This document shows, one piece after another, positions 40-31,037 of a DNA stretch of 32,000 nucleotides. The DNA lies in NCBI RefSeq assembly GCF_049243625.1, contig NZ_CP046975.1; one strand, given 5' to 3'. A program made the translations under genes and the position numbers. A model generated the notes under the pieces. It saw nothing but the letters and a program-made list of their open reading frames with translations. It had not been told where the DNA came from and made no database searches. The number at the start of each line of letters is the position of its first letter. Position 1 is the first letter of the stretch. This stretch comes from Corynebacterium amycolatum. Its GTDB lineage: Bacteria > Actinomycetota > Actinomycetes > Mycobacteriales > Mycobacteriaceae.

Positions 40-85
40 CTAGATGTTGAACTTAAACTCGACGGTATGTAGTTGCAAAGTTACT
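40..85 (-). repeat. att-like copy A of the ychF 3' terminus (degenerate; minus strand reads ...HTVEFKFNI-stop)
   Basis: 46-63 gttgaacttAaactcgac matches ychF 16410-16427 at 17/18. The flanking arm 64-85 ggtatgtagttgcaaagttact matches 13209-13230 at 21/22. In-frame TAG at 40-42 (minus). Confidence 0.75.
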
Positions 86-139
86 TTCTCGTTAGCCTGC
101 AACAATCAGAAAACAGTAATTACGTCAGTACACAGAGAA

Positions 140-289
140 CATATGGGCGCGTGGAAACACGTAAAGGTTTTGCGGGATGGCGTGGACGTCAACGTGAAGA
201 TTCTGGAGAACCTCGCCGCCCACGTCGCTCCCGCGTTGGGTTGGCAGCCGAATCACGAAGGCCCAGTTACCGGCTATCCCATCGAATAA
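140..289 (+). pseudogene. C-terminal remnant of a luciferase-like (LLM class) flavin monooxygenase
   Basis: The frame of ORF 44..289 ends ...GVDVNVKILENLAAHVAPALGWQPN.... This resembles the ...VAPALGW C-terminus I recall for the LLM family whose N-terminus is MKAxGFLSFGHY. No N-terminal part is present and the fragment directly follows att copy A. Confidence 0.35.
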
Positions 290-323
290 TTCCTGCAGGC
301 CGCAAGCTCTTCGCTTCAATGTC

Positions 324-372
324 AGTTCAGCGCGTGTTGAATAGTTCAGTAATTGCTGTATAGTTCACCCCA
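324..372 (+). promoter_or_regulatory. Candidate leaderless cmtR promoter/operator
   Basis: TTGAAT 337-342, 16-nt spacer, TATAGT 359-364, with the cmtR ATG at 372 (7 nt after the -10). AGTTCA hexamers at 324-329, 343-348 and 362-367 sit at exact 19-bp phasing. TGAATAGTTCA dyad at 338-348. Confidence 0.4.
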
Positions 373-731
373 TGCTGACTATTGCTTCACGCCTCGACGT
401 CATGAACCGGCTCGGCCGGGCCATGGCGGATCCGACGCGCTCCAGAATCCTGCTGACCCTACTCGACGGCCCGAGCTACCCAGCCGTGCTTTCGCGCGAC
501 CTGGACCTGACCCGCTCGAACGTCTCGAACCACCTGACCTGCTTGCGTGACTGCGGCATCGTCGTCGCCGAGCCGGAGGGCCGCAAGACACGCTACGAAA
601 TCGCCGATCCGCACCTCGCGACAGCGCTCAACGCGCTAGTGAACGCGACGTTGGCTGTCGACGAAAACGCCCCGTGCATCGACCCGGAGTGCTCGGTGCC
701 TGGCTGCGACGGAAAAGGAGCGGACGCATGA
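372..731 (+). CDS. cmtR: ArsR/SmtB-family metalloregulator, CmtR type (Cd/Pb sensor)
   Basis: 119 aa. The N-terminus MLT...LGRAMADPTRSRIL and the HTH ...LTRSNVSNHLTCLRDCG resemble M. tuberculosis CmtR. Cys occurs at positions 57, 61 and 102, the same three positions as the CmtR metal ligands. Confidence 0.85.
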   Translation: MLTIASRLDVMNRLGRAMADPTRSRILLTLLDGPSYPAVLSRDLDLTRSNVSNHLTCLRDCGIVVAEPEGRKTRYEIADPHLATALNALVNATLAVDENAPCIDPECSVPGCDGKGADA

Positions 732-2620: not shown

Positions 2621-2698
2621 GACATACCTTCGCCCAGCGCGCTGACTCTCCAGTGCGGATCTTGGAAGGATCGAGCTGCTCAGGGACCAAGCGTCGCC

Positions 2699-3061
2699 TC
2701 AAAACTTTTGATGCCGAGCTTCATCGACACGACCCGCGACTACCTGGGCAGTGTATTTGGCAAAGGGCCCGACACCCATCAGGGTTGCCGAGCCGTCGCC
2801 GGTCCAGTTGCCGTAACCAACTAGATGGAGATTCTTCACCGCGGTTTCGCGGCCGCGCATGAGATGGCGGAATGGGCCGAGGGCCGGACGGAAACCAGTG
2901 CACCAGATCAGATGGTCGTGGTCGAGCTCGCTCAAACTATCGAAGATGGGGGCAGCGGTGAGCTGGCCGGAATCGCGGAGCTCACGTAGATGAGGAAGCG
3001 CGAGAATGTCCCCGAGGTTCGGGCCGGAATCGCCACCGAGAATCCGGCGGCGGCTGCCCGC
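2699..3061 (-). pseudogene. C-terminal fragment of an FAD/NAD(P)-dependent oxidoreductase (ArsO-like flavoprotein)
   Basis: Contains ...HLIWCTGFRPALGPF...VGYGNWTG.... The frame stays open upstream as far as att copy B with no start codon. About 120 codons remain of an expected ~350. Confidence 0.55.
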
Positions 3062-3062
3062 G

Positions 3063-3099
3063 TTAAACGTTGAACTTGAACTCCACGACGTGTCGTTGC
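3063..3099 (-). repeat. att-like copy B of the ychF 3' terminus (minus strand reads [10 protein letters not shown]-stop)
   Basis: 3067-3083 acgttgaacttgaactc is identical to 16408-16424. TAA at 3063-3065 (minus). The arm ...cgtgtcgttgc resembles the A and C arms (tgtcgttgc). Confidence 0.75.
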
Positions 3100-3530
3100 T
3101 AAATACCCTTTACCCTATGGACATACAGTAGAAGCTGCTAGAGATTGAGTAGATACAAGAAGTAAAAAGCGATAGCTAGGATCGCAGTACAACCTTCGAG
3201 ACCGCGACGACGGCTGCTACCGTAGGCCTCGTTGCCTAACTGACACCAACGCCGTGTCCACTACTCGGGGGACACCCCAACATTAATGCTGCCCTGCCGG
3301 CAGACCAGGGCGGCCGTGTGAGTATCGGACAATAATGCGTAGTCCTCCAAGGGTCTGGACACAGGGGCTTTCCCCTTTCCTCAGTGGTGCGACCAGAAGG
3401 AGTAGAAACATCCACCCCGGTGCACCTGCTGCGGTGACAACGACCCATCGCCCGCAGCAGGTGGCAATCGTCACGGTTATCCCTCTTTTTCAGATTCCTG
3501 TCCTCGGGATCAGAAAAAGACGGGGACCTG

Positions 3531-4219
3531 TCATAGGTCAGTGAGCATTTGCTGCATCTGGGCGATCTCGGCCTCCTGGTCGTTGATAATTTGTTCGGCC
3601 AGGGTGATTGCATGGGAATTCTGGCCGTCAGCAACCTCGTCACGGGCCATGTCGACCGCACCTTCGTGGTGGGCGGTCATCTGCTCCAGGTAAAGGCGGG
3701 CGGCGCCGGTGCCCTGGGCTTCCTCAAGGGCTGTCATGTCCTCCTGGCTCATCATCCCGCTCATGCCACCCATCTAGCCGTGATCCATTCCACCTATCTC
3801 ATCCATGGTCCCCATGCCCCCCCAGAGTCGGTGACCGGCTGCTGTCCCCAGGCCTCGAGCATGGCGTTCATCCGGTCAATCTCCGGTCCCTGGGCGTCAA
3901 TAACCCCCTGGGCAAACTCCACGACCTGGGCGGGGATGCCCTCCTTGGCCAGGAGCATCTCACCCATTTCCACGGCCTGCTTGTGACGGGGGATCATCAT
4001 CTGGGCAAACATGATGTCCGCGTCGTTGTGATCGGCGGAAATCTCCCCGTCCTCCTCAGTCGCCGCCCTGGTGGTCTCGGTCGTCTCAGCGGTAGTCGTC
4101 GCAGTGCTGGTGGCCGAGGTGGTGGCGTCGGTGTTGCCTGAGTCGGTGGCCTCACCGCAGGCGGCCAGCGCCAGGGTGGAGGCTACGGCGAGAGCGGAAA
4201 GAACAAGGGTGCGCTTTAT
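3531..4219 (-). pseudogene. DUF305 family (copper-associated) lipoprotein, disrupted
   Basis: Two ORFs (3794..4012 and 3531..3773) together give DUF305 motifs (MIPxHKQAVEM; HHEGAVDMA). The frame changes at the C7 run 3817-3823, and one extra base would restore it. In-frame TAG at 3774-3776. The lipoprotein signal IKRTLVLSALAVASTLALAAC begins at ATA (4217-4219), with a stop 5 codons upstream. Confidence 0.8.
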
Positions 4220-4297
4220 GGTGAAGCCCGTTCAGGGTCAGTGGAGAGAAGTGATGGATCAGTGGACGGCGGTGGATTTCGGAGTAGGCGTGGTGTG

Positions 4298-6494
4298 TTA
4301 CTCCTTCGGACTGGTGGGAGCCAGGTGGGCCGGGTCCAGATCAATCCGGCGCAACAGCTGGGCGTTCAGGGCCACCACTATGGTCGAGGCAGACATCAAG
4401 ATCGCGCCCACGGCCGGGGACAGCACGAACCCGATCGAGGCGAGCACTCCGGCGGCCAGCGGCACGGCGAGGATGTTGTAGCCAGAGGCCCAGACCAGGT
4501 TCTGGATCATCTTGCGGTAGCTGGCCTGGGACAGCTCAATCATCGACAGCACTGCCCGCGGGTCATCACTGGCTAGGACCACCCCGGCAGATTCCATGGC
4601 CACATCCGTGCCGGCACCGATGGCGATACCGACCTCCGCGCGGGTCAGAGCGGGGGCGTCATTGACACCGTCACCGACCATGGCCACGCTCAAACCCCGG
4701 TCCTGCAGCTGCATGACCTTGGTGTCTTTGTCCTGGGGCAGGACCTCGGCGAAGACCTCATCGATCCCCAGGTCCTGGCCAACCGCCTGAGCCACCTGCT
4801 GCGCGTCACCGGTGATCATCGCGACCTTCACCCCGCGGTCCTGCAGGGCTTTCACGGCAGCTCGGGATTCGGGGCGGATCTTGTCCTCGACGGCCACCGC
4901 ACCGATAATCTGACCGTCACGGACAATATGGAGCACACCGGCCCCACGCCCGGTCCAGGCGCTGGTGGTGTCGGTGAGCTCGGCCGGGGTGGTGAGGTTG
5001 AACTCGCGCAGCATGTTCGGCCCGCCCACGAGGATCTCAGCGCCATCGACAGTGGCCCGGACCCCCCCGGCCGGAGGCGGCGCTGAAACCAGTTGCACGC
5101 ATTTGCCGACGGGAGGCCTCGGGATGGGCGGCCGCGGCCGCCACGATGGCGCGGGCCACGGGGTGCTCGCTGTCGGCCTCCGCGGCGGAAGCCAGGGCCA
5201 GCAGCTCGCCCTCGGTGACGCCGACAGCTGCTGCGACACCGGTGACCGCGTGCGCACCCTCGGTCAGGGTGCCGGTTTTGTCGAAGAGCACCACGTCGAT
5301 GGTGCGCATCCGCTCGAGCGCCATCCGGTCCTTGATGAGCACCCCGGATTTCGCGGCCCGCTCGCTGGAGATCGCAATGACCAGCGGAATCGCCAGGCCC
5401 AGGGCGTGCGGGCAGGCGATGACCAGCACCGTGACCGTGCGCACCACGGCATCGTCCGGGCTGCCGATGATGGTCCACACCACCGCGGTGATCAGAGCGG
5501 AGATCAGCGCGAACCAGAACAACAACGCTGCCGCCCTATCCGCCAGGGCCTGGGCCCGGGAGGAGGACTCTTGGGCGTCGGCAACCATGCGTTGGATCCC
5601 GGCCAGGGCGGTGTCCCCGCCGGTAGCCTCCACCCGGATGCGGACGGTGTTGTCGGTAGCCACGGTACCGGCGACCACCTTGTCACCGGTGTCGCGGAAG
5701 ACGGGACGGGATTCGCCGGTGATCATCGCCTCATCGAATTCGGCGGCTCCGTCGATGATGGTTCCGTCGGCCGGCACCCGGGCACCGGCCCTCACCAGCA
5801 CGACGTCGTCGACGACCAGCTCGGAGATGGCCACGGTGCGGGTGGTCCCGTCGATGACTTTCTCGGCCTCATCCGGCAGCAGGGCAGCCAGCGCGTCAAG
5901 CGCGGAGGACGCAGCCCCGAGAGCACGCATCTCCAGCCAGTGGCCCAGCAGCATGATGGTCACCAGCAGGGCCAGCTCCCACCAGAAGTCCAGGTCAAAA
6001 CCGCCCAGCCCCAGAGTGGTGACCCAGGAGGCGACAAACGCCACGGTGATGGCCATGGCGATCAGGAGCATCATCCCGGGTTGGCGGGATTTCAGTTCGT
6101 TCCATCCGCCCTTGAGGAAAGGCGTTCCGCCGTAGACGAAGATGATCGTGCCCAGCACCGGGGGGATCCAGGTGGATCCGGGGAATGCCGGGAGGTGGTA
6201 GCCGAGCAGCTGGGCGACCATGGGGCTGAAAATAACGACGGGAATGGACAGAATCAGCGACCACCAGAAGCGGTCCCGAAACATTGCGGTGCTGTGTCCG
6301 GCGTGTTCGCCGTGACCATGAACGTGGTGGTCTTCGTCCATGGCGGAGTGCGGGTGATCGTGGGGCATCGCCTGGCCGTGGGTGTCGGCGTCTGCGTGGT
6401 GTTCGTGGCTGGCATGATCCGGGTGGTGGGTGTGGTCTGTTTCCGGAGCGGGGTGATCACCATGGTGATCGCCGGAATGGTGGAGAGTGCTCAT
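4298..6494 (-). pseudogene. copB: Copper P1B-3-type ATPase (CopB-like: His-rich N-terminus, CPH motif), frameshifted
   Basis: ORF 5037..6494 carries a His-rich N-terminus, TGES, CPH (VIACPHAL) and DKTGTLT. ORF 4298..5257 carries GDGVNDAPAL and the C-terminal TM helices. The frames join if the C7 run 5061-5067 is read as C6, giving ...SGRGVRATVDGAEILVGGPNML. Confidence 0.85.
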
Positions 6495-6546
6495 GACGTT
6501 CCTTTCCGCTCAACCCGGTCGGGGTCGAGATGATGGGTAAAACCGA

Positions 6547-6873
6547 TCAGGATAAGACGGTGTAGCCGGCCTCTTCGATGGCCCGGCGAACCATCTCCGG
6601 AGGTACGACACCGGTGACCGTGACGGTGGAAACACCACCAGCAGCGAGATCAATCTGGACGTCGTCGACCTGGGGGAGGCCCTGAAGGGCCTGGGTCACG
6701 CTTTTCGCGCAATGCCCGCAGGTCAGGCCGGTGATCTGGTAGCTAAGGGAGGACCCTCCTGCTGACGAGTCGCTGGCGGCAGGGACGGAGGCGGTGTCGG
6801 CACGTGAGGCAGGTCCGCAACAGTTGCAGCCGTGGGAGGCCATCGGCAAGAGGCGGGGCGGGAAGGTGATCAT
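6547..6873 (-). CDS. Heavy-metal-associated (HMA) domain protein, CopZ-like, with an extra Cys-rich N-terminus
   Basis: GLTCGHCAKSV metal-binding motif and a ferredoxin-like HMA fold pattern. N-terminal HGCNCCGP. The start at 6873 is preceded by GAAGGAG. Confidence 0.8.
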   Translation of the reverse strand: MITFPPRLLPMASHGCNCCGPASRADTASVPAASDSSAGGSSLSYQITGLTCGHCAKSVTQALQGLPQVDDVQIDLAAGGVSTVTVTGVVPPEMVRRAIEEAGYTVLS

Positions 6874-6922
6874 GGGAAGGCTCCTTCGGTTCGGTGGGGT
6901 GTGGCAATTCCGCTCTCTAGCG

Positions 6923-6941
6923 TATACCCCCGGGGGGTATA
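6923..6941. promoter_or_regulatory. CsoR-type operator-like GC palindrome in the copZ-like/copB promoter
   Basis: tataccccc-g-gggggtata, with 9-bp perfect arms. On the minus strand it fills the spacer between TTGAAA and TACGCT, 50 bp upstream of the copZ-like ATG. Confidence 0.55.
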
Positions 6942-6987
6942 TTTTCAAGGAGTGGAGGGCACGGCCCTCACGCGGGGCAGGGTGTGG

Positions 6988-8116
6988 TCACCGAGCAGCC
7001 CCCTCACTGTCGGGAGGGGACATCGGGAGGCGGAGGGCAAACACCGCTCCGCGACCGGGTCCGGGGGAGGTGGCGGTGAGAGTGCCGCCGTGGGCCTCGA
7101 TCAATGCCTTGGAGATGGTCAGACCGATACCGGACCCGCCGTTGTCCCGGCTGCGGGCGGCATCCCCCCGGTAGAAGCGTTCGAAGATGTGTCCGAGCTG
7201 GCCAGGTGGGATGCCCTCGCCATCATCGGCGACGTGGATGAGCGCGGTGGACGCCCCCTGGCGGTGGACGCTGATCCGGACCTGCCCGCCGGCCGGGGTG
7301 TGCCGTAGCGCGTTCGACAGGAGGTTGCTCATCACCTGGCCGAAGCGTTGCCGGTCCACGAGCACCCGGGCGGTGTCCGTAATGGTCTCGACCTGTAAAT
7401 CGACGCCTTTGTCAGCATAAGCTTCCCCCGCGGCAGCAGCGGCGGTATGGAGCAGATCCCCGAGCCCTTCCTCCGCCAGGTCCAAATCGATCCGGTGTTC
7501 CTGGGCCCGGGAGACATCGTCAATGTCCTCCATCAACCGGGTCAGGCGGGTGAGTTGGTCAGCCATGATTGTGTGGGCGGCATTATTCCAGTCCACGACC
7601 CCGTCCTGGAGACCATCGAGGTAGGCCGTGAGCACCGATAAGGGGGTGCCCATTTCGTGGGCCAGGTCAGAGAGCATCTGGCGGCGGACCTGTTCGGTGT
7701 GTTCCAGTCGGTCGGCCATGGTGTTGAAGGCATGCGCCAGGGTGGTGACCTCGGGGCCTGCTTCTCCGGCGGGCACGCGGATACGGGAGTTACCGGCCGC
7801 CAGGCTGGTAGCGGCGCGGGTGAGATCCTGCAGGGGGGGTGCGCAGGCGACGCGATAACCACAGACTGGCCAGTAGGGCGCTGATCAAGGCAGTGGGCAG
7901 GGCGACGGCCAGGGTGATCAGGTTGGCGTCCCGGTAGGCCTGCTCGGCATGGAACAGCTCCAGCGAGGGGTCCTCCCGGCCGGCCATCAACATATGATCA
8001 TGGAACAGGGTCGGCCCCACCGTCGTGGCCACGGCCGCGGCCACCATCAGGCTAATCACCACGACCAACACCTGGGCGGCCAGGAAGCGGAAGGTCAAGC
8101 CGGGTCCGTGATTCAT
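6988..8116 (-). pseudogene. copS: Sensor histidine kinase CopS-like, frameshifted
   Basis: ORF 7790..8116 gives the TM sensor part. ORF 6988..7776 gives HAMP, the H-box SDLAHEMGTPLS, the N box LLSNALRHT and the G boxes DDGEGI and GGSGIGL. The frames join if the G7 run 7833-7839 is read as G6, giving ...RRLRTPLQDLTRAATSLAAGNSRIRVPAGEAG. The start overlaps the copR stop (ATGA). Confidence 0.85.
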
Positions 8117-8835
8117 GGCTGCCCCACCCGGTAGCCCACGCCACGCACGGTGTCGATAAACCCCCGGCCTCGGGTGTCGGTGCCGAGCTTGCGACGCAAG
8201 TTGCCTATGTGGACATCGACGATGCGTTCATCACCGACCCAGGTAGTGTCCCAGACCTCGGTGACCAGGTCGTGGCGGGTCAGCGCCTGGCCGGGGCGCA
8301 GGGCCAGGGCAACCAGCAGCTCGAACTCCGTGCGGGTGAGCTCCACAGTCGTCTCCCCCACCCGCACCTGATGGGCGACGGGGTCAAGGATGAGGTCACC
8401 AACGATCAAGGGGGTGGTCACCTGCGGTGGGGTGGTGCTGGTGCGCGGACGGCGCAGCACTGCATGCACCCGGGTCACCAGTTCCCGGATGCTAAAAGGT
8501 TTGGTGATGTAGTCATCCGCCCCCAGGGTCAAACCGCTGATCTTGTCGTCCTCGCTGCCACGCGCGGTGAGCATGAGGATGTAGCAGTCCGAGAAGGTGC
8601 GGATCCGTCGGCACACCTCCAGGCCGTCGAGTTCGGGCAGCCCCAGATCCAGCACCACAACATCGGGGGAAAAGCGACGGGTCTCGTCCACGGCCTGGGT
8701 GCCGGTGTGCGCCTGACGGGTATCGAAGCCTGCCCGGATGAGGTAGGAGGCCACCATCTGAGCCAGGGGTTGTTCATCATCGACGACCAGCACCCGCCCC
8801 GGGGGCGTGGCGGTGGTCGGTGTGTGGTCAGCCAT
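8113..8835 (-). CDS. copR: OmpR-family response regulator CopR-like
   Basis: 240 aa with a receiver domain (VLVVDDE...D...TAR...K) and a winged-helix C-terminus (...VRGVGYR). Synteny and an upstream CopR box support the call. Confidence 0.88.
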   Translation of the reverse strand: MADHTPTTATPPGRVLVVDDEQPLAQMVASYLIRAGFDTRQAHTGTQAVDETRRFSPDVVVLDLGLPELDGLEVCRRIRTFSDCYILMLTARGSEDDKISGLTLGADDYITKPFSIRELVTRVHAVLRRPRTSTTPPQVTTPLIVGDLILDPVAHQVRVGETTVELTRTEFELLVALALRPGQALTRHDLVTEVWDTTWVGDERIVDVHIGNLRRKLGTDTRGRGFIDTVRGVGYRVGQP

Positions 8836-8893
8836 AGACCCCAGTATCGCTCCGGCCAGGGGGGAATACCATCCTCGCTCAGTGCCCGGCGGG

Positions 8894-8913
8894 GAATCTT
8901 CATCAAATCTTCA
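8894..8913 (-). promoter_or_regulatory. CopR-box-like direct repeat
   Basis: The minus strand reads TGAAGATTTGATGAAGATTC, two 9-mers 11 bp apart. As I recall it, the C. glutamicum CopR site is TGAAGATTT-N2-TGAAGATTT, which this matches at 17 of its 18 specified positions. It lies in the copR/cueP-like divergent intergenic region. Confidence 0.6.
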
Positions 8914-9110
8914 AATATAACCCTTCGACCGCCGTCACCCCTGTGCCCCACCCCGGGCCGGCGGCATCGCCTCCCCTGGTCGGTTCAGCAGGCGCCACCA
9001 GGGATTTTACTGCAAGCACCGCATACCCGGGGCGGGTAGAAGGACATCGCCCACGGCTGTGGGGTGGTGTCCCGGTGGTGACCCAGCTCACCGAATTCAC
9101 CCTCTTTTCG

Positions 9111-9140
9111 CCCTGCTATAAAGCTGTGAGCAGGGTTTTT
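9111..9140 (+). terminator. Terminator-like hairpin inside the 5' leader of the CueP-like gene
   Basis: ccctgct (9111-9117), an 11-nt loop, agcaggg (9129-9135), then TTTTT 9136-9140. It lies 100 bp upstream of the 9240 start. Confidence 0.4.
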
Positions 9141-9239
9141 GATTTCTAGTCCGTCAGGCACCCGTGCTAGATAAAGGTATGGCATCGACCTTGAGGCGGT
9201 GTCTTCTCACGGTCCTACCCACGATCCAAGGAGATTGAC

Positions 9240-9815
9240 GTGAAACGAGCAGCGATCGCAGTCGCCGCCCTTGCCCTCGCCCTCACGGGGTGTTCGGCCG
9301 CCGACCCGGAACCCACGGCCGACGGGACGGTGTCCCAGGATACATTCCTGACTACCCATGGCCTGGCCGACATGGGCGCGGTGGAGATCATTGATCACCT
9401 CGACCGGCAGAAGGTCACTGAGCGTCCCACGGATTTGATCGCCTCAGTGCGCGCCGATGAACTGCTGCTCTCGAGCGGTGACCAGGAAGTCGTGGTCGAT
9501 CTTCCCGACAATCAGACGTATGTCTCGATCGCACCCTATCTCACCTCCACCCACGACTGCTTCTACCACAGCCTCACGACCTGCCTGGGGGAACTCAACA
9601 ATGAGGATATCCAGGTCACGATCACCGATGAGGCGACCGGTGAGGTGCTGGTGGACGAGGCGACAACCACCTTCGACAACGGGTTTATTGGCTTCTGGCT
9701 TCCCGATGATGTCACCGGTCTGATTGAGGTCAGCTACCAGGGGCGTACCGGCACCACGGAGTTTTCCACCACCGACGACGGTGCCACCTGTGTCACAGAC
9801 CTGCGCCTGACGTGA
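9240..9815 (+). CDS. CueP-like copper-binding lipoprotein (cg3286-position gene)
   Basis: GTG start after AAGGAG. Lipobox LTGC at Cys18. Cys107, Cys115 and Cys184 have spacings of 8 and 77, versus 8 and 76 for Cys96/104/172 that I recall in Salmonella CueP. Confidence 0.7.
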   Translation: MKRAAIAVAALALALTGCSAADPEPTADGTVSQDTFLTTHGLADMGAVEIIDHLDRQKVTERPTDLIASVRADELLLSSGDQEVVVDLPDNQTYVSIAPYLTSTHDCFYHSLTTCLGELNNEDIQVTITDEATGEVLVDEATTTFDNGFIGFWLPDDVTGLIEVSYQGRTGTTEFSTTDDGATCVTDLRLT

Positions 9816-9885
9816 TAGCTCAGCAGGGTCCTCACCTGCGCCTGTCTCCCGTGTCACTGAATTCTTACACCAGGAAGGTTAAATC

Positions 9886-11367
9886 ATGACGAACGCGTTT
9901 TCCCGACGACAGTTTCTGCTCGGCGGGCTCGTCCTCGCCGGCACCGGGGCCGTGGCCGCCTGCACCAGCGATCCTGGACCCGCTGCCTCGGCACCAGGTT
10001 CCTCCCTTCACCCCACTCCCACCCCCACTGCGCTCGGTGAGCCGACGGTGCGCCGGACACTGACCGCCCGGCCCCTCTCTCTGGATATCGGCGGTATCGA
10101 AGCCAAGACGTGGGGATACGTCTCTGACACCGGGGATGCGGCCATTGAGGCCACCGCCGGCGACGTCCTCCAGGTCGATATCACCAATGAACTGCCTGAG
10201 AGCACCTCCATCCACTGGCATGGCATCGCACTCCACAACGCAGCCGACGGTGTGCCCGGCATGACCCAGGACCCCATTGAACCTGGCGAGTCTTTCTCCT
10301 ATGTTTTTGAAGTCCCCCACGGTGGCAGCTACTTCTACCATTCCCACTCCGGCCTGCAGCTTGATCGCGGCCTCCACGCCCCACTGATCGTCCGTGACCC
10401 GCAAGACGCTGAGGACCAGGACGTCGAGTGGACCATCGTGCTCGACGACTGGGTCGATGGCATTCAGGGCACTCCCGACGATGAGCTCGACAAGCTCACC
10501 GGAATGGGTTCGGACGACCATAACGGGAAGAAGGGGATGGGAGGTCACGGCCATATGATGCACGGCACCCCGGACCGGGTACTGGACGGGGATGCCGGCG
10601 ATGTGATGTATCCGCACTACCTCATCAACGGACGTATCCCCCGTGCTCACCGGACCTTCGAGGCTCGCCCGGGCGACAAGGCCCGCCTGCGGTTTATCAA
10701 CTCCGGCGGTGACACCATCTTCAAGGTGGCCCTCGGTGGTCACCGCATGACCGTCACCCACACCGACGGCTTCCCTGTCCAACCCCGGGAGACCGAATCG
10801 ATCTACCTGTCGATGGGCGAGCGTGTCGACGTCGAGGTCATCCTCGGCGACGGCATCTTCCCGCTCACGGCTTTGGCGGTGGGTAAGGACGACCGCGCCT
10901 TCGCCGTCATCCGCACCGCCGGCGGCCAGGCCCCCCGCCCCGATGTCGACTTCCCCGAGTTGTCATCCACCGGACTGCTTCTGTCCTCCCTGAAGCCAGC
11001 AGACCGTGCACTCCTGCCCGAGGGCACACCAGACCGAGAAGTCAGCATCGACCTGGGCGGGCAGATGATGCCGTATGAATGGAGCATTCTCACCGACGGC
11101 CAATCGTCCTCCGCGACCGTGCAGGAGGGCCAGCGCCTGCGGATGGTCATGCGCAACAGGACCATGATGCCCCATCCCATGCACATCCACGGCCACACGT
11201 GGGCGCTGCCCGGCAGCGGCGGGCTACGCAAGGACACCGTCCTTCTCCGCCACGGTGAAACCATGATCGCCGACCTGATCGCTGACAACCCCGGTGAGTG
11301 GGCATTTCACTGCCATAACGCCTATCACATGGAAACCGGGATGCTCAGCTCGCTTCGCTACGAGTAA
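9886..11367 (+). CDS. Multicopper oxidase (CopO/CueO-like), Tat-signal lipoprotein
   Basis: Twin-arginine signal SRRQFLLG followed by AAC. Copper-ligand motifs HWHG, HSHS, HPMHIHGH and HCHNAYHMETGM. Confidence 0.92.
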   Translation: MTNAFSRRQFLLGGLVLAGTGAVAACTSDPGPAASAPGSSLHPTPTPTALGEPTVRRTLTARPLSLDIGGIEAKTWGYVSDTGDAAIEATAGDVLQVDITNELPESTSIHWHGIALHNAADGVPGMTQDPIEPGESFSYVFEVPHGGSYFYHSHSGLQLDRGLHAPLIVRDPQDAEDQDVEWTIVLDDWVDGIQGTPDDELDKLTGMGSDDHNGKKGMGGHGHMMHGTPDRVLDGDAGDVMYPHYLINGRIPRAHRTFEARPGDKARLRFINSGGDTIFKVALGGHRMTVTHTDGFPVQPRETESIYLSMGERVDVEVILGDGIFPLTALAVGKDDRAFAVIRTAGGQAPRPDVDFPELSSTGLLLSSLKPADRALLPEGTPDREVSIDLGGQMMPYEWSILTDGQSSSATVQEGQRLRMVMRNRTMMPHPMHIHGHTWALPGSGGLRKDTVLLRHGETMIADLIADNPGEWAFHCHNAYHMETGMLSSLRYE

Positions 11368-11517
11368 CCCCCACAGCAGGGTTGAGTGCCGAGGTGGGCA
11401 GAGTCGCTGCAGGCCACCCACCGGGCAGCACGATGACCTTCCTCGGTGTTGTGGTCTTCCGGGACAACCAGAACACCGTCTTCTTCCCCACCGCCCCGGA
11501 ATATGGAGATCTAATCC

Positions 11518-12133
11518 ATGCCGAGCACACCCCGCAGAGCCGCCATCGCGGTTGCCGCGGTGCTCACCGCCGTGACCCTGGTGGCCTGTTCCTCAGGCGA
11601 CGGCATCCGAAACGCCGTCGCCGTCGGGGGGGGCACCTTCCAGTTCCACTCACCAGGAGGCCAAACCGAGATTATCTACGCAGAGGAGGAATGTGCGCCG
11701 CTGCCGGGCTTCTCCTGCCCGTCGTTGATGGAGGAAGGTGAGGAGATCAGCCTGTCTGATTTTGAAGGCGAGGTCGTCGTCCTCAACGCTTGGGGCTAGT
11801 GGTGTGCACCGTGCCGGACGGAAGTCGATGACCTGCAGCTTGTCCAAGAGACTCTCGACCCCCTCGGTGGCACGGTGCTGGGCATCAACGTCCGTGACTA
11901 CAACCAGACCATCGCCCAGGACTTCAAACTCGACAACGCGGTGACCTATCCCTCGATCTACGACCCGCCGTTTCGTATCGCTGCGGCCCTGGGAGGTGCC
12001 GACCTCGGTCATCCCGACCACCATTGTCCTGGACCGAAGCCACCGCCCGGCCGCGGTGTTCCTGAGGGAGGTCACCGCCGATGACATCCTTGATGTCGCT
12101 CTGCCGCTGGCCGAGGAGGCACCAGCATCATGA
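11518..12133 (+). pseudogene. TlpA/ResA-like thiol:disulfide oxidoreductase lipoprotein, disrupted
   Basis: Lipobox LVAC. The active site reads NAWG-TAG-WCAPC, with an in-frame TAG at 11797-11799 where WGxWCxPC is expected. A second frame change near 11991-12000 is needed to reach ...VPTSVIPTTIVLD...LAEEAPAS-stop at 12133. Confidence 0.8.
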
Positions 12134-12465
12134 CCGTTGATGTGATTGCGCAGTTGGCGATCGGCCAGCAGTTCGCCGACGCCGCGGCCACCGGGCCACT
12201 GATGATCGGCATCCTGGCTGCAGCAGCTGCAGGTCTGATCTCGTTCGCCTCCCCGTGCGTCGTACCCCTGGTACCCGGATATATGTCGTATCTGGCCAGT
12301 GTGGTCGGCGGGGAGGTCGACTACGACGCCGAGGGGGCGCGGTGGTCACCAAACGCCAGTGGGCGGTAGCGGGTGCGGCCGGGTTGTTCATTCTCGGCTT
12401 CACCGTCGTCTTTGTGCTGGCCACCGTCACCGGGGGTGTCTCCCGAGTAAAGGACACGGCGTTGG
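12130..12465 (+). pseudogene. ccdA: CcdA/DsbD-family cytochrome c biogenesis membrane protein, frameshifted and 3'-truncated
   Basis: The ATG overlaps the upstream stop. SFASPCVVPLVPGYMSYL motif. The frame changes near the G5 run 12332-12336. Homology is lost after ~110 codons, where the repeat-bearing lower-GC DNA begins. Confidence 0.7.
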
Positions 12466-12486
12466 TGTCAATCTATTGCGCAGTAA

Positions 12487-12588
12487 ACGTGCCAATCGAA
12501 TGGCTGGCCACTTCACTGTTTAATTAACGTGTCAATGAAATGGCTGCCTAGTACATAGTGCAATCTACGTGTCAATAAAGTGGCTGGG
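12487..12588 (+). repeat. Three 22-23-bp direct repeats at exact 40-bp phasing (TGTCAAT...GGCTG type)
   Basis: 12487 acgtgccaatcgaatggctggcc; 12527 acgtgtcaatgaaatggctgcc; 12567 acgtgtcaataaagtggctggg. There is also a partial copy, tgtcaatc, at 12466. Confidence 0.8.
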
Positions 12589-12599
12589 ACAGAAGAGAG

Positions 12600-12845
12600 C
12601 ACGCAAGAAGGGCCAATTGAAGCAGCAATGCACTGCACGCTGGCGATATCGCGCATGGAATTACCGCGTTCGATAGCACGATAGATACCAAGTACAGCCT
12701 CCGCCTCAGCAGGGATGATCTCGCCTGTTGAGCTGTAGCCAATAGGACGTACACCGTCGGAACACCAGCGCCCTTGCTCAGCACGCTGCTGTTGGGCGCG
12801 TGACTGCCTAGCGCCTTTACGCTCGGGTACACTGGCGGAAGCTTG
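12600..12845 (-). pseudogene. Short internal fragment resembling a (large) serine recombinase
   Basis: A stop-free minus frame 12513-12845 reads ...RAEQGRWCSDGVRPIGYSSTGEIIPAEAEAVLGIYRAIERGNSMRDIA.... This follows the pattern ...G.W.GG..PyGY...l.i...EAe.v..if......G.S...IA typical of the recombinase domain. No catalytic domain, no start codon, and no C-terminal domains. Confidence 0.3.
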
Positions 12846-12864
12846 CTAGCGGTAGTCAACGATT

Positions 12865-13152
12865 TCACCCTCCCCTGGGCCCCGTGATGGTGTAGTCACG
12901 TTGAATATGCGCTGTTGCCTGACCCCACTCGCTCGCTTTAACCCGCGCTTGGTGCGAATCGAACGATGCTTGATCAGTGAATTGTTCTGATACATTCCAT
13001 ACGAGCGGGTCGTCGGATTGAGTGACCTCGAAGCGCAGACACCCGGGTTCATCACGAGAGAGCTCAACGTGTTTTGGAAGGAACCGTTCAACGATTGAAA
13101 CATCACTGTGGTCTTTGCAGATCAAGGTGCCGTTCAGCTCGATCATGCTCAT
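12865..13152 (-). CDS. Antibiotic-biosynthesis-monooxygenase (ABM) domain protein
   Basis: 95 aa. ...DEPGCLRFEV...WNVSEQFTDQASFDSHQARVKASEWG... is the typical ABM/YgiN-like pattern. An RBS-like gaaggtg lies upstream. Confidence 0.75.
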   Translation of the reverse strand: MSMIELNGTLICKDHSDVSIVERFLPKHVELSRDEPGCLRFEVTQSDDPLVWNVSEQFTDQASFDSHQARVKASEWGQATAHIQRDYTITGPRGG

Positions 13153-13184
13153 AGAACACCTTCGCTATAAGTCAGACGCGGCGC

Positions 13185-13230
13185 TTAAACGTTGAACTTG
13201 AACTCGACGGTATGTCGTTGCAAAGTTACT
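13185..13230 (-). repeat. att-like copy C of the ychF 3' terminus (minus strand reads ...RHTVEFKFNV-stop)
   Basis: 13189-13208 acgttgaacttgaactcgac is identical (20/20) to 16408-16427. TAA at 13185-13187. The arm 13209-13230 matches copy A. Confidence 0.8.
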
Positions 13231-13266
13231 CCCTCTCGTTAACACCATCAAAAGGAGTGTTATCCA

Positions 13267-13515
13267 ATGAAAGCGTTCGGCTTCTTAAGCTTCGGGCATT
13301 ACGCCTTCGGCAGCTAGTGCGGGCCATCTGCGGAAAAGATCGCCAAGACTCGTCTGGAGATCACCCAGGCTGCGGACGAAATCGGCGTGAACAACGCGTC
13401 CTTCCGAGTCCACCACTTCGCGCTGCAGGCCTCCGCCCCGATGCCGCTGCTGTGTGCTATCGCGGCCACCACCAAAATCATCGAGGTGGGCACCGGCGGC
13501 ATCGACCTGCGCTAG
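13267..13515 (+). pseudogene. N-terminal remnant of a luciferase-like (LLM class) flavin monooxygenase
   Basis: MKAFGFLSFGHYAFGS-TAG-CGPSA...FRVHHFALQASAPMPLLCAIAATTKIIEVGTGGIDLR-TAG. In-frame TAG codons at 13315-13317 and 13513-13515. Homology stops at 13515. Confidence 0.6.
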
Positions 13516-13558
13516 CGCATATCGGGGTTGTAGCGTTTGAGTCATTGAGTCCCGCCGT

Positions 13559-13948
13559 CTACAAGTACCTACACACTTGATCGGTGCTGCACGTTTCAGG
13601 ATCCGGGTGCGCGGCGTCCTGGCTAAGGTCCGCGATAGTGTCGCGCAGCACGGAGAGCTGCGCGATCTGCTGCTCGATCTCAGCGAGGCGCACGTCAAGC
13701 AGGTCGCGCACGTGCTCGCAGGGCGCATGGCCGCCGTCGCGGATGTCGAGGATCTGGCGGATCTGGGCGAGGGTGAGGCCCGCGGCCTGGCCGCGGTGGA
13801 TGAAGTCGATCCGAGCGACCGTCTCGGGCGCGTAGTCGCGGTATCCGGACGGCGTGCGCTCGGTCGGGGGCAGAAGGCCCTGTTCCTCGTAGAAGCGAAG
13901 GGTCTTCGCGGTAGTGCCCGCCCTCTCGGCGAGTTCTCCGATCCACAT
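13559..13948 (-). CDS. merR: MerR-family transcriptional regulator (mercury-responsive type)
   Basis: 129 aa. The N-terminal HTH is MWIGELAERAGTTAKTLRFYEEQGLL. A coiled-coil dimerisation helix follows. Cys occurs in HAPCEH and in the C-terminal ETCSTDQVC. The gene is divergent from merA. Confidence 0.88.
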   Translation of the reverse strand: MWIGELAERAGTTAKTLRFYEEQGLLPPTERTPSGYRDYAPETVARIDFIHRGQAAGLTLAQIRQILDIRDGGHAPCEHVRDLLDVRLAEIEQQIAQLSVLRDTIADLSQDAAHPDPETCSTDQVCRYL

Positions 13949-13972
13949 TACTGTCTCCCTCCGTGGCCGCGC

Positions 13973-14007
13973 TTGACCTTCCCCTGCACTGGAAGGTCCA
14001 GTATGGC
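13973..14007 (+). promoter_or_regulatory. MerR-type promoter/operator for merA
   Basis: TTGACC at 13973-13978. A perfect dyad gaccttcc-N8-ggaaggtc at 13975-13998 spans an overlong (~20 nt) spacer before a -10-like cagtat/tatggc at 13999-14007. Confidence 0.6.
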
Positions 14008-14046
14008 TGAGACAGAGCAGAAAGCCAAGAGTTGACAGGAGCAGCG

Positions 14047-15471
14047 ATGCCTACGAAGTACGATCTCGCCATCATCGGATCGGGAGGCGGCGCGTTCGCC
14101 GCTGCGATCCGCGCCAGCACGCTCGGGAAGTCGGTGGTGATGATCGAGCGCGGGACGCTCGGCGGCACCTGCGTGAACACGGGCTGCGTCCCGTCGAAGG
14201 CGCTCATTGCCGCGGCCGGCGCGCGGCACGTCGCGGTCGACGCCGCAACCCGGTTCCCCGGAATCGCTACGACGGCGGATCCCGTCGACATGCCCGCGCT
14301 GATCGCTGGGAAGCAAGCGTTGGTGGAGTCGCTGCGCGGCGAGAAGTACGCCGACGTCGCCGACTCCTACGGCTGGCAGGTCCTCCGCGGCGACGCCTCG
14401 TTCGTGGGCACCCCTGATGCGCCGGTTCTCGATGTTGCCGGATCCGACGGAAGCGTCGAGACCATCGAGGCCCACCACTACCTGGTCGCGACTGGTTCTC
14501 GCCCGTGGGCACCGCCGATCGACGGCCTGGAGGAGACCGGGTACCTGACCTCGACCACGGCGATGGAGCTGACGGAGGTCCCCGAGTCGCTGCTGGTGCT
14601 CGGCGGCGGCTACGTCGCCCTGGAGCAGACGCAGCTGTTCGTCCGCCTCGGCTCCCAGGTCACCGTGCTGGTGCGGTCCCGGCTCGCGTCGAAGGAGGAG
14701 CCGGAGGTGTCCCGGACACTGCAGGAGGTGTTCGCCGACGAGGGCATCCGGGTGGTCCGCCGCGCGGTGCCGACCCGGGTGTCCCGGGACGCGGCGACCG
14801 GGCAGGTCGTGGTTACCGCGGACGTGTCCGGCGGCTCGCAGGAGTTCCGCGCCGACCAGGTGCTCGTCGCTCTCGGACGCCGTCCCGTCACCGACGGCTT
14901 GAACCTCGATGCGGTCGGGGTGAAGACCGGGGACTCCGGCGAGGTGGTCGTCTCCGACCATCTGCAGTCGTCGAACCCGCGGATCTGGGCCGCGGGCGAC
15001 GTGACCGGGCACCCGGAGTTCGTCTACGTCGCGGCCCACCACGGCACCCTCGTCGCCGAGAACGCGTTCGCCGACGCCGACCGGTCCGTCGACTACTCCC
15101 ATCTGCCGCGGGTGACGTTCACCGGACCGGCGATCGGCGCGGTCGGGATGACCGAGAAGGAGGTCGTCGCCGCGGGGATCCGCTGCGACTGCCGCGTGCT
15201 GCCCCTGGAGTATGTGCCCCGGGCGGTGATCAACCGCGACACCCGCGGGTTCATCAAGATCGTCGTGAACGCCGATACGAGCGAGATCCTCGGCCTCACC
15301 GCCGTCGCCAAGGACGCCGGGGAGCTCGCCGCCGCAGGCGTCCACGTACTCGGCAGGACCGTCGCCGAGGTCGCCAACGCCTGGGCCCCCTACCTGACCA
15401 TGGCCGAGGGCATCCGGATCGCCGCGAAGGCCTTCACCACCGACCCGTCGCTGCTGTCGTGCTGCGCATGA
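14047..15471 (+). CDS. merA: Mercuric reductase MerA (core enzyme, no NmerA domain)
   Basis: ATG at 14047 after AGGAG (alternative TTG at 14032). Motifs: GSGGGAFAAA FAD site, redox-active GGTCVNTGCVPSK, and the C-terminal Cys pair ...LLSCCA. Confidence 0.93.
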   Translation: MPTKYDLAIIGSGGGAFAAAIRASTLGKSVVMIERGTLGGTCVNTGCVPSKALIAAAGARHVAVDAATRFPGIATTADPVDMPALIAGKQALVESLRGEKYADVADSYGWQVLRGDASFVGTPDAPVLDVAGSDGSVETIEAHHYLVATGSRPWAPPIDGLEETGYLTSTTAMELTEVPESLLVLGGGYVALEQTQLFVRLGSQVTVLVRSRLASKEEPEVSRTLQEVFADEGIRVVRRAVPTRVSRDAATGQVVVTADVSGGSQEFRADQVLVALGRRPVTDGLNLDAVGVKTGDSGEVVVSDHLQSSNPRIWAAGDVTGHPEFVYVAAHHGTLVAENAFADADRSVDYSHLPRVTFTGPAIGAVGMTEKEVVAAGIRCDCRVLPLEYVPRAVINRDTRGFIKIVVNADTSEILGLTAVAKDAGELAAAGVHVLGRTVAEVANAWAPYLTMAEGIRIAAKAFTTDPSLLSCCA

Positions 15472-15818
15472 ACGGCAACGCAGGCAATCGGGGAGATCTC
15501 ATCCAGAAGCAGACGATGAGCGCCGATCAGGACCGCGACGAATGGCGCGCCGGTCCCGTCGTCGCTGCAGTGACCGGGCTGCTCCTACTGGCATGCTGCG
15601 CGCTTCCGTCGCTGCTCTGCTGCGGCCTGCCGTTCATCGCGGCGGGCGGAGCACTCGCAGGCGTCGGTGGGCTCCTCGGTAATCCCTGGATCATCGGTGC
15701 CGGGACCGCCGTCGTGATGGCCGTCATGGCGGGGATGCTCGTCAGGCTACGGCGGCGGCACCGGCGCTGCAGGTCCGGCTGCTGCGAAAATCCTTCGACC
15801 GCTGATCGGAACCGGTAG
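15468..15818 (+). CDS. Small two-TM membrane protein with three vicinal Cys pairs, candidate Hg(II) transporter (MerF/MerH-like architecture)
   Basis: The ATG overlaps the merA stop (ATGA). 116 aa. TM1 is LLLLACCALPSLLCCGLPFIAAG, TM2 is WIIGAGTAVVMAVMAGMLV, and the basic tail is RRRHRRCRSGCCE. It lies inside a long GC-shadow ORF (14505..15818). Confidence 0.6.
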   Translation: MNGNAGNRGDLIQKQTMSADQDRDEWRAGPVVAAVTGLLLLACCALPSLLCCGLPFIAAGGALAGVGGLLGNPWIIGAGTAVVMAVMAGMLVRLRRRHRRCRSGCCENPSTADRNR

Positions 15819-16010
15819 TTCGAGCGGATCCAGCGATCACTGCCACCTGCGGAGGCCGCTGAAATCGAAGCCCGACGGGAGAAGGAGGAGCAAAAAGCGT
15901 TCGAATCAACCGGTGACGAGGATAATACTGAGGCTGGATCCCGGCCGTCGCGACGCGGTCTCCGCTTCCGCCGAGACGAGAAAGGGTTGTGGGCACCTAG
16001 GCTGGGCGGC

Positions 16011-16400
16011 ATGAACGACATGACCATAGCGCCCGGCCCGGGGATCCCCGACGGTGCGGTCATCGCCGCCGATCTCGCGGAGCGTTTCGCGAAATCGTCG
16101 ACTCCGGGCGGCCAGGGCGTCAACACGACGGACGGCAAAGTCCAGCTTTCCATCGATGTCGCCGAATGCGCATCGCTTACCGACGCCCAGCGTCACCGTA
16201 TCTCGCGCAACCTCGAGCACCGCCTAGACGGCTCCGTCTTTACCGTGACTGCGTCGACTCAGCGGTCTGTGTTTCGCTCCTGGTCCTCTCGCTTGCACCT
16301 GCGACACAGCCTCGTGCCCCCGGGCCGTAGCGTTCGGGGGAGCACAATAGCCCCAGTCCTCATCACGTCCCGGGATCAAAGAGTTCATCGCAGAGGTTAA
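16011..16400 (+). CDS. ArfB-like peptidyl-tRNA hydrolase (GGQ-motif ribosome-rescue factor family), atypical tail
   Basis: ...FAKSSTPGGQGVNTTDGKVQLSIDV...LDGSVFTVTASTQRS matches the RF-1-domain GGQ core of ArfB/YaeJ. The C-terminal tail is less basic than usual. The stop at 16398-16400 lies 3 nt from the ychF stop. Confidence 0.55.
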   Translation: MNDMTIAPGPGIPDGAVIAADLAERFAKSSTPGGQGVNTTDGKVQLSIDVAECASLTDAQRHRISRNLEHRLDGSVFTVTASTQRSVFRSWSSRLHLRHSLVPPGRSVRGSTIAPVLITSRDQRVHRRG

Positions 16401-16403
16401 GCA

Positions 16404-16427
16404 CTACACGTTGAACTTGAACTCGAC
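16404..16427 (-). repeat. att-like copy D, the functional 3' end of ychF
   Basis: 16408-16427 acgttgaacttgaactcgac encodes VEFKFNV, with TAG at 16404-16406. Confidence 0.8.
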
Positions 16428-17492
16428 CACATCACCGTCGTGCATGATGTAGTCCTTGCCCTCCTGGCGAACCTTGCCCTTGGCCTTCGCCTCGGCAATC
16501 GAACCGGCCTCGACCAAGTCGTTGAAGGACACAATTTCAGCCTTAATGAAACCGCGCTCAAAATCAGTGTGAATCACGCCGGCAGCCTGCGGAGCCGTAG
16601 CACCCTTCGGAATGGTCCAGGCGCGAGACTCCTTCGGGCCAGCGGTCAGGTAGGTCTGTAGCCCCAGGGTGCGGAAACCAGCGCGAGCAAGCGAATGCAG
16701 GCCCGGCTCAGTCTGACCAATTTCGGCCAGCAGCTCATTGCGGGATTCCTCATCCAGCTCCAGCAGGTCCGACTCAGCCTTCGCATCGAGGAATACACAG
16801 TCCGCCGGTTCCACAGCAGCGGCCAGATCCGCGCGGCGGTCCTCGTCGGCAAGCACTTCCTCGTCAGCATTGAAGACGTAGAGGAACGGCTTTGCGGTGA
16901 GCAAGTGCAGCTCGCGCAGAGCGGAGAGCTTCACATCATCGGAAGCAGCGAAGAGAGTGCGCCCCTCTTCCAACACGGCAAGGGCCTGTTTAACGGCTTC
17001 AACCTCGCCGACCTTTTCCTTATCCTTCTTGGCTTCCTTTTCCAGCCGCGGCAGCGCCTTCTCAATGGTCTGGATATCAGCCAGGATGAGCTCGGTTTCA
17101 ATCACACCGATGTCTGAGGCCGGGTCAACCTTGCCGTCGACATGCACGACATCATCATCGTTGAAGACACGGACGACCTGACAGATAGCGTCAGCCTCGC
17201 GGATGTTGGCGAGGAACTTGTTACCCAGGCCTTCGCCCTCCGATGCACCCTTGACGATGCCGGCGATGTCCACAAACGACACCGTAGCCGGAAGAATACG
17301 CTCGGAGCCGTAAATCTCGGCGAGCTTATTCAAACGGGGATCGGGAAGCTCCACAACGCCGACGTTCGGCTCGATGGTGGCGAATGGGTAGTTCGCAGCC
17401 AGCACATCGTTGCGCGTCAAGGCGTTAAACAGGGTTGACTTTCCGACATTGGGCAGACCGACGATTCCAAGTGTAAGACTCACATTGCCCAT
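16404..17492 (-). CDS. ychF: Redox-regulated ribosome-binding ATPase YchF
   Basis: [23 protein letters not shown]-loop, a TGS-like C-terminus and full-length similarity to YchF/Ola1. The start is ATG 17492 (MGNVSLTLG) or GTG 17483 (MSLTLG). The ORF-track start at 17594 is rejected. Confidence 0.93.
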
Positions 17493-31009: not shown

Positions 31010-31037
31010 CGCCTAATCGAAGCAATAAAAAAATAAA

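Follow-up and report, generated by a model that had tools for sequence, protein, structure and literature searches.

In staphylococci, SCCmec (staphylococcal cassette chromosome mec) is integrated by large serine recombinases (LSRs) into the last codons of a housekeeping gene, the 3' end of rlmH/orfX, whereby the reading frame is kept. Each integration adds a direct repeat and elements are stacked in tandem. Modules of this class which lack ccr (ACME, short for arginine catabolic mobile element, the copper and mercury resistance element COMER, psiSCC) frequently encode resistance to Cu, Hg, Cd or As, lie between the same repeats and are mobilised with or by a recombinase-bearing neighbour. Tandem accretion is also known from the 3' end of fda in Streptococcus thermophilus, where cis-mobilizable elements (CIMEs) and ICESt1/ICESt3 depend on a tyrosine integrase and on conjugative integrative elements (ICEs). 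For SCCmec-type modules, nested excision of one or several modules was measured with ACME/COMER and SCCmec (PMC7029739). In actinobacteria, ychF was described in 2024 as the integration site of pipolins encoding LSRs (PMC11551731). Here we analyse a stretch of 32,000 nt from Corynebacterium amycolatum (contig NZ_CP046975.1, hereafter the window) in which copies of the ychF terminus separate metal resistance modules. The locus is probably a composite island formed by repeated integration into ychF, most likely by a ychF-specific LSR that is reduced to a remnant in this strain. An initial sequence-only reading had regarded ychF as an apparently unreported island target, which the 2024 publication contradicts. 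For the recombinase-less arrays and their spread among corynebacteria no earlier description was found; ychF as a target of LSR elements was known already.

The 18-mer GTTGAACTTGAACTCGAC occurs at four sites on the + strand of the window (46-63, 3069-3086, 13191-13208 and 16410-16427) with no more than one mismatch per copy. By chance 0.01 matches are expected, and four copies were reached in 0 of 100 shuffles. The four copies in the same orientation, initially found by reading, were confirmed. The copy at 3069 recurs as supposed but does not diverge after 15 of 15 bases; it matches at 17 of 18 positions up to 3086 with a mismatch at base 16. The copy at 46-63 likewise has one mismatch. On the minus strand the repeat unit comprises seven codons of the ychF terminus plus stop (24 nt), resulting in copies A (40-63, stop TAG at 40-42), B (3063-3086, TAA at 3063-3065), C (13185-13208, TAA at 13185-13187) and D (16404-16427, TAG at 16404-16406), all in-frame stops being where they had been placed before. 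Copies B, C and D translate to VEFKFNV-stop, copy A to VEFKFNI-stop. The octamer at the right-hand edge is AACTCGAC in A (56-63), C (13201-13208) and D (16420-16427) and AACTCCAC in B (3079-3086). Among the four, copy D alone is joined to a ychF body, as the first reading had it, and represents the functional terminus of the integration target (ychF, 359 aa, 16404-17483, minus strand, YchF equivalog). The similarity of A, B and C exceeds the 18 nt: about 25 nt more of the GGTATGTCGTTGCAAAGTTAC type are common to them on the right, and the right-hand stretches are 70-88% identical over 50 nt. This extension is element-side sequence and not ychF. The orphan terminus copies of the window (40-63, 3063-3086, 13185-13208) and of the comparison loci L104-L113 and L128-L247 vary at third-codon positions of ychF only, as though every copy had in the past formed the actual end of ychF in a host.

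The array continues to the left of the window. A fifth terminus copy (att0), which the sequence-only reading had suggested to look for, lies ~1.2 kb further left at window-equivalent positions -1173 to -1156 directly after a SulP gene. It is found on the same strand with the same kind of right-hand arm, and the flank carrying it shows 0 mismatches to the window across the overlap. Hence there are four modules or more in the array, and copy A lies inside it, where the DUF488 module meets the Cd/Pb module. The order is SulP, att0, DUF488, A, Cd/Pb, B, Cu, C, Hg, D::ychF. Overlaps of 10.7 kb and 21 kb with the assemblies GCA_054653755.1 and CP120206.1 are free of mismatches to the window, and CP008913 (Corynebacterium sp. 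ATCC 6931) is a sister genome. Since two independent assemblies are identical over the array and the same junctions recur in many genomes, the array is not an assembly artefact, an objection that had been raised at the outset. The GC content of the modules (0.63-0.71) is higher than that of the core to the right (0.54-0.62), in agreement with the first impression.

Both within the species and among relatives the ychF-SulP interval differs by whole modules which are joined at the repeat. In L006 and L010 one core joins the Cd module's end with the beginning of the Hg module, representing a precise absence of the Cu module. In L013 the Cu module directly follows ychF, and further module orders are found in L003-L020. 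Such single-module variants had been anticipated in related genomes. As whole modules are gained and lost exactly at the repeats, the proposal that these are att-type junctions of repeated integration at the ychF 3' end is well supported. Over its full 3,195 nt, from one repeat to the next, the Hg module shows 97.1-97.4% identity to its counterparts in eight loci of other Corynebacterium genomes. Where present on those loci (four of the eight) ychF is 73-75% and the adjacent core genes are 67-71% identical. The neighbours of the Hg module vary and include ychF itself, nSTAND, Abi_2, Cd or erm modules, always with the same core at the junction. Across species the Cd module is 90-94% and the Cu block 96.5% identical. 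Judged from these comparisons, the Hg, Cd/Pb and Cu modules are discrete units moved horizontally between species. Modules of other strains carry HXXEE, luciferase-like, DUF998/TetR/glyoxalase, epimerase, ApeA-HEPN, HepT/MNT and erm genes; an erm-type (RrnaAD) methyltransferase and defence genes (ApeA-HEPN, GmrSD, Abi, HigB, ParE) fill the same repeat-bounded slots.

In relatives of the strain an LSR is attached to the ychF site. It consists of Resolvase and Recombinase domains, has 503-504 aa when intact and is encoded 19-21 nt past the ychF stop on the same strand (L142, L252 from Corynebacterium sp. P4_F2, L255 and L248-L251). L142 was found by a metagenome scan for the corynebacterial terminus (120 metagenome loci). 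It shows ychF, 19 nt, a frameshifted LSR and ~5.3 kb further on an orphan terminus plus Hg module. L255 has an intact LSR with 82% identity on a contig of full corynebacterial synteny, and the four contigs L248-L251 carry an intact LSR in the same place with other cargo. A complete element of ~10.9 kb with both ends is present in L256. Here a 58%-identical LSR relative is located at the distal end, its start codon 42 nt from the distal orphan terminus. Three viral contigs with LSRs abutting ychF-terminus copies, without a ychF body, show the same distal architecture. Among solved structures and named families, the LSR is closest to large serine integrases, XisF and CcrB. LSR elements restore the ychF frame with an RFNVT-stop ending. 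A recombinase that is most likely specific for this core exists in relatives. The linked enzyme in Corynebacterium is a large serine recombinase and not a tyrosine recombinase, as had been suggested by analogy to the CIMEs of ICESt1/ICESt3.

The window itself retains 61 codons of this gene (12642-12824, minus strand) just inside copy C. They correspond to residues 135-195 of the 503-aa protein P0241 (83.6% identity, E = 6e-27). The first statement that the modules contain no integrase, transposase or relaxase gene holds for intact genes but has to be amended for this remnant. A derivation of the resolvase fragment near copy C from a Tn3 TnpR was ruled out, as it is 84% identical to residues 135-195 of the ychF LSR. 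The same residues are left in L137, and further remnants span residues 1-195 (L113), 5-140 (L184), 1-113 (L234, followed by erm) and 1-44 (L038, followed by an open reading frame (ORF) of 668 aa). Each remnant of this decay series directly follows a repeat, from which we conclude that the recombinase-less modules are, at least in part, decayed recombinase elements. L038 looks like a snapshot of recombinase loss. A 505-aa LSR in C. urealyticum-type arrays (L107, L111) was considered as the responsible enzyme and rejected, given that no ychF-like site lies beside the gene and that close homologues reside in relaxase- or FtsK-type elements away from ychF.

At five LSR junctions the upstream ychF sequence differs and is followed by the common octamer GTGGAGTT and then by identical element sequence TCGTTTCAATGTAACCT. 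The LSR start codon is located ~20 nt past this junction (...GTGGAGTT|TCGTTTCAATGTAACCT...). Because the five ychF backgrounds differ upstream and are identical from there on, the point of exchange lies within or at the edge of GTGGAGTT. Hence the crossover presumably takes place inside this octamer (AACTCSAC on the + strand), the right-hand 8 nt of the 18-mer. A mapping of the crossover from polymorphisms within the repeat copies gave no location, the variants not being flank-linked; the comparison of LSR junctions did. In other genera, replaced YchF C-termini remain alike up to VEFR, so that their divergence sets in one or two codons further 3'. Across 57 distinct element-side arms GGTWAC is common at -22 to -17 and CGA.AC at -9 to -4. 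The arm adjacent to the LSR in L256 agrees with the arms of recombinase-less modules at 16 of 24 positions, which is equalled by 0.1% of shuffles. The element site can be tentatively reconstructed as arm + GTGGAGTT + TCGTTTCAATGTAACC, and with the arm of L142 it would read L142 arm + GTGGAGTT + TCGTTTCAATGTAACCTAA...

Based on these data, the window would represent most of a composite island that arose in a Corynebacterium belonging to the ATCC 6931 lineage, as one element after another was integrated site-specifically into the final codons of ychF. Each incoming element would bring its own imitation of the ychF end, so that ychF stays intact and the prior end is pushed outward as an orphan copy. 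Integration would be catalysed by the LSR. Every module of this array seems to have lost its recombinase and may travel by nested excision together with a recombinase-bearing neighbour next to ychF, as ACME and COMER do with SCCmec. Alternatively, an incoming element might supply the enzyme in trans. Unless the enzyme is supplied, the array in this strain should currently be immobile.

Several observations weigh against this scenario. Neither the window nor the adjoining 10 kb on the left contains an intact recombinase gene. A single fixed crossover would predict third-codon variants of the core that are cleanly linked to one flank, and they are not; in orphan copies they are linked to neither flank. 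The proximal halves of the modules resemble true ychF ends, whereas LSR elements supply RFNVT-stop instead. The arms of the LSR elements in L142 and L120 are not significantly similar to module arms, and the arm type of the window itself (GTAACTTTGCAACGACATACC) was not seen beside an intact LSR. A circular or free attP was not detected in plasmid, phage and viral collections, neither with a 63-nt att plus arm nor with the P arm of the LSR element. Close LSR relatives can moreover lie away from ychF (P0252 with 55% identity, L107 type). Canonical large serine integrases recombine only attP with attB, and use of the hybrid junctions of the array would need either a directionality factor or an enzyme of relaxed specificity. 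A part may also be played by gene conversion between the copies or by a second enzyme.

In an alternative scenario, site-specific integration made the first copies and the present differences mainly result from RecA-dependent homologous recombination with no recombinase on the modules. Deletions would then proceed via the 24-nt repeats, and whole arrays would be exchanged via the flanking ychF and SulP genes after DNA uptake. The core variants are only synonymous and shuffled relative to the flanks, as gene conversion predicts, an intact recombinase is lacking in the array of the window, and canonical LSRs should not act on hybrid junctions. However, repeats of 18-24 nt are very short RecA substrates. 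Modules of 90-97% identity are embedded in flanking genes of only 67-75%, which are too divergent for a homologous exchange in the flanks. Moreover, the same module is found beside many neighbours and is always joined at the octamer-containing core, and the element arms are conserved as expected for protein binding sites. We thus consider a mainly RecA-driven origin of the present arrays unlikely.

Use of the ychF terminus extends beyond Corynebacterium. From one genome per species with YchF we obtained 80 Actinomycetota loci, about 20 of which repeat their own ychF terminus in frame further downstream, among them C. jeikeium (four copies), Nocardia, Rhodococcus, Dietzia, Prauserella, Pseudonocardia and Psychromicrobium. 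Several other loci of the survey have replaced YchF C-termini that diverge after VEFR. The large ORFs scanned between the copies are cargo (oxidoreductases, AbiEi, AbiTii, ApeA, an IrrE-like protein, TnpB). This suggests that arrays lacking a recombinase are widespread across the Actinomycetota. In Amycolatopsis, Blastococcus, Modestobacter, Arthrobacter and Rathayibacter the ychF stop is abutted by a tyrosine integrase (PF26003 + PF00589, ~369 aa) of a strongly conserved family with >4,000 homologues and 63-67% identity across orders (L025 11112-12368, L039, L063 11105-12214, L101 8001-9107, L103 8001-9113, L125 1335-2549). In L025, L039 and L103, where the locus includes the distal copy, a 19-nt direct repeat of the terminus borders the element on both sides. 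Sequenced phages contain no relative of this integrase closer than 31% identity. The tyrosine integrase elements are small and prophage- or satellite-like, with HTH_3, HTH_17, AAA_25 and sometimes a capsid gene.

An enzyme of this family, encoded elsewhere or on a transient element, might also build and move the modules of Corynebacterium. It abuts the ychF stop in five other genera and one viral contig, its 19-nt repeat shows, by eye, 5-nt inverted arms around a 7-nt spacer, and a crossover in this spacer could explain the core variants that the LSR model leaves unexplained. However, the family was not found in the ~35 Corynebacterium-type loci screened, and a phmmer search over the 120 metagenome loci returned only weak tyrosine-recombinase matches (E 6e-16 or worse). 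Compared with the Corynebacterium copies, its repeats begin 5 nt deeper in the terminus, its element arms do not mimic ychF, and the remnants within the Corynebacterium modules are those of a serine recombinase. A tyrosine integrase as driver of these modules is therefore considered highly unlikely. An origin of the copies by host XerC/XerD at dif-like sites of 28 nt, whose XerC and XerD arms enclose a 6-nt spacer (as for integrative mobile elements exploiting Xer, IMEX, or pdif modules) or as integron-like attC cassettes would also account for tandem recombinase-less modules but is hardly credible, with no ATAA-N6-TTAT inner palindrome of dif and no attC-like hairpin visible by eye, no IntI-like gene in any locus scanned and a site that is the terminus of a coding sequence with dedicated LSR genes physically attached.

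The tyrosine integrases do bear on a wider interpretation next to the preferred one of repeated LSR-mediated integration. Tentatively, and with less than even chances, the last 24 nt of ychF might be an Actinomycetota-wide docking site on which at least three unrelated recombinase lineages have converged and at which single cassettes are exchanged from species to species. These lineages appear to be the LSR clade in two gene architectures and two kinds of tyrosine integrase. On the viral contig L125 (1335-4004) the tyrosine integrase and a large serine recombinase lie to either side of one orphan terminus, a stack of two unrelated recombinase systems at one site. In the viral contigs L119 (8518-8586), L122 and L127 the ychF mimic is longer, with 22 codons (GKDYTMQDGDVVEFRFNV-stop), and is adjoined by a fragment of a different tyrosine integrase. 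This fragment may stand for a third enzyme lineage using ychF. If the docking site is real, it would be an integron-like or SCC-like platform of gene exchange not described as such, with resistance, toxin-antitoxin and anti-phage cassettes. It would also require a serine recombinase acting on hybrid junctions of arm, core and ychF end that canonical serine integrases refuse.

Compared with the systems introduced above, the ychF array resembles SCC in its class features. Integration occurs at a 3' end with the frame restored, repeats bound every module, and a recombinase-less module stands in tandem with an LSR element in L142 (ychF, LSR, orphan terminus, Hg module). Furthermore, a common octamer core is combined with conserved arms. 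As to the LSR gene itself, intact copies are known from relatives and a 61-codon remnant from the window. Phylum, target gene and recombinase differ from SCCmec, with a single LSR gene instead of the ccrAB pair. One architecture, with the LSR 19-21 nt after the target stop, is also unlike SCCmec, and the ychF system is known here from sequence comparison. It is not SCC proper, as the scores for CcrB (72 bits, cutoff 900), CcrC (31, cutoff 900) and CcrA (27, cutoff 700) are far too low and the target is ychF. CIMEs are alike as integrase-less, att-flanked remnants in tandem at the 3' end of a gene, and mobilisation in trans is proposed for both. They differ by the tyrosine integrase, whose att sites have inverted core arms separated by a spacer of 6-8 nt, and by the association with ICEs, in contrast to the serine recombinase and the much longer and more diverse arrays found here. 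Integron arrays and clusters of attC sites lacking integron-integrases (CALINs) share long arrays of small, individually variable, recombinase-less cassettes at one site, the enzyme often being absent from the array. Unlike integrons, the ychF arrays have no IntI, no attC hairpins and no common promoter logic. The ychF cassettes are 1-10 kb in size, have their own regulators (CmtR, MerR) and are bounded by a mimic of a coding sequence. Pipolins at ychF share the target gene, the recombinase class and the phylum Actinomycetota; the respective paper contains neither recombinase-less arrays nor an att core (PMC11551731). The locus is not a pipolin by definition, since no DNA_pol_B match (piPolB) was obtained among the window ORFs scanned or the LSR-bearing loci examined.

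The amycolatum, jeikeium and urealyticum groups of Corynebacterium live as commensals on skin and are also opportunists with multidrug resistance. Near-identical cassettes (90-97% vs. ~70% in the core) carry the Hg, Cd/Pb and Cu determinants from species to species, and a single chromosomal docking site is a route that would be missed by surveillance centred on plasmids and transposons. With one recombinase gene and a 24-nt target in a universally conserved gene, the system is a tractable parallel to SCCmec. A ychF-specific serine integrase with defined junctions is moreover a candidate tool for genome engineering in Actinobacteria. Orphan termini in ~1/4 of the 80 Actinomycetota species suggest a widespread and largely unannotated class of small islands. 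For the window, the sequence-only reading was right in outline (tandem accretion, recombinase-less modules, enzyme elsewhere) and wrong in the location and class of the recombinase and in the novelty of the target. A recombinase just left of position 1, which had been thought possible, was ruled out: the 10 kb there comprise core genes (glutaminase, patatin, major facilitator superfamily (MFS) and SulP genes), the small DUF488 module and the fifth repeat.

The Cd/Pb module begins with an element-side arm at 64-95 (minus strand, GGTATGTAGTTGCAAAGTTACTTTCTC..., repeat family D1). It encodes CmtR, a Cd(II)/Pb(II)-sensing regulator of the ArsR/SmtB type (372-731, + strand, equivalog with 176 bits vs. 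a cutoff of 150), and a P1B-type heavy-metal ATPase of the Cd family with 630 aa (728-2620, + strand). The initial assignment of the three cargo sets to Cd/Pb, Cu and Hg holds for the metals (CmtR and P1B ATPase, Cu block, MerR and MerA); their coherence does not extend to module 2, the Cu module, which is composite.

In module 2 the element-side arm GACGTGTCGTTGCTAAATACCC (3087-3113, minus strand) is followed by a plasmid-derived copper block of 9.15 kb (3279-12432) between two 38-nt inverted repeats of family I1, which are 92% complementary. The left one (3241-3278) and the right one (12433-12470) both abut the block with their GGGG ends (3278 and 12433). The block contains DUF305 fragments, a frameshifted CopA (4298-6494), an HMA protein (6547-6873), a frameshifted histidine kinase (6988-8116), a response regulator (8113-8835), CueP (9240-9815) and a multicopper oxidase (9886-11367). 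Its identity amounts to 96% with Rothia terrae plasmids and to 89% with a plasmid of C. marinum. This homology ends 2-4 nt from the two inverted repeats, which consequently belong to the flanking DNA. Transposons of the Tn3 family end in inverted repeats of 38 nt whose GGGG ends point outward, encode a DDE transposase, in some cases also a resolvase, and duplicate 5 bp of the target. The repeats of module 2 are alike in length but their GGGG ends face inward to the block, no transposase is present, and no target duplication was found (AACAT vs. CACCG). The first idea, that they are the ends of a copper transposon, is therefore not supported in that form. CopA and the histidine kinase, each split by a frameshift here, are intact (731 aa and 375 aa) in CP008913. 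Hence the Cu module may be non-functional in this strain. An ABM-domain ORF of 95 aa (12865-13152, minus strand) lies between copy C and the recombinase remnant. Module 2 is a decayed recombinase element joined to a plasmid-derived Cu block.

The Hg module comprises 3,195 bp (13209-16403). It starts with the element-side arm GGTATGTCGTTGCAAAGTTACTCCCTC (13209-13240, minus strand) and encodes MerR (13559-13948, minus strand), MerA (14047-15471, + strand), an ORF of 119 aa (15459-15818) and, at its ychF-proximal end, an ArfB-like ORF with RF-1 domain (16011-16400). Similar ArfB-like genes of 147 aa recur at module ends in L106, L108-L110 and L112. Either the gene is a recurrent passenger or it was originally a native neighbour of ychF that may have been captured.

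Cassettes with an erm-type RrnaAD rRNA methylase are located in L004 (12699-20209), L112 (823-6759), L019 (11767-12621) and L234 (3542-4438). In L004 and L112 the same stretch also encodes an HTH_17 protein as well as a protein of ~440 aa in which a MobV/Pre-like HxDE..PH motif is present, suggesting that part of a mobilisable element has been left there. Unannotated array proteins of ~440 aa had been candidates for novel recombinases, which was rejected for both types. The protein of L004/L112 has a coiled-coil tail besides its HxDE..PH motif and reads as a MobV/Pre-like relaxase; the ~440-aa protein of L108 is unrelated to it and has no family match.

Large ORFs recur at similar positions beside the LSR site. 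In L038 (11063-13269, Corynebacterium sp. Marseille-P4321) the ORF of 668 aa follows a ychF with RFNVT-stop ending. A cargo ORF of L251, after a lactococcin-972-like gene, has the same length and position (a comparison of length only), and L142 has an ORF of 716 aa in the matching position.

Scans of the window for tRNA and Rfam families returned no hits. In the core region a 27-nt inverted repeat (31035-31097, 85% complementary, 9-nt loop) is bordered by an A run and a T run and looks like a bidirectional intrinsic terminator.

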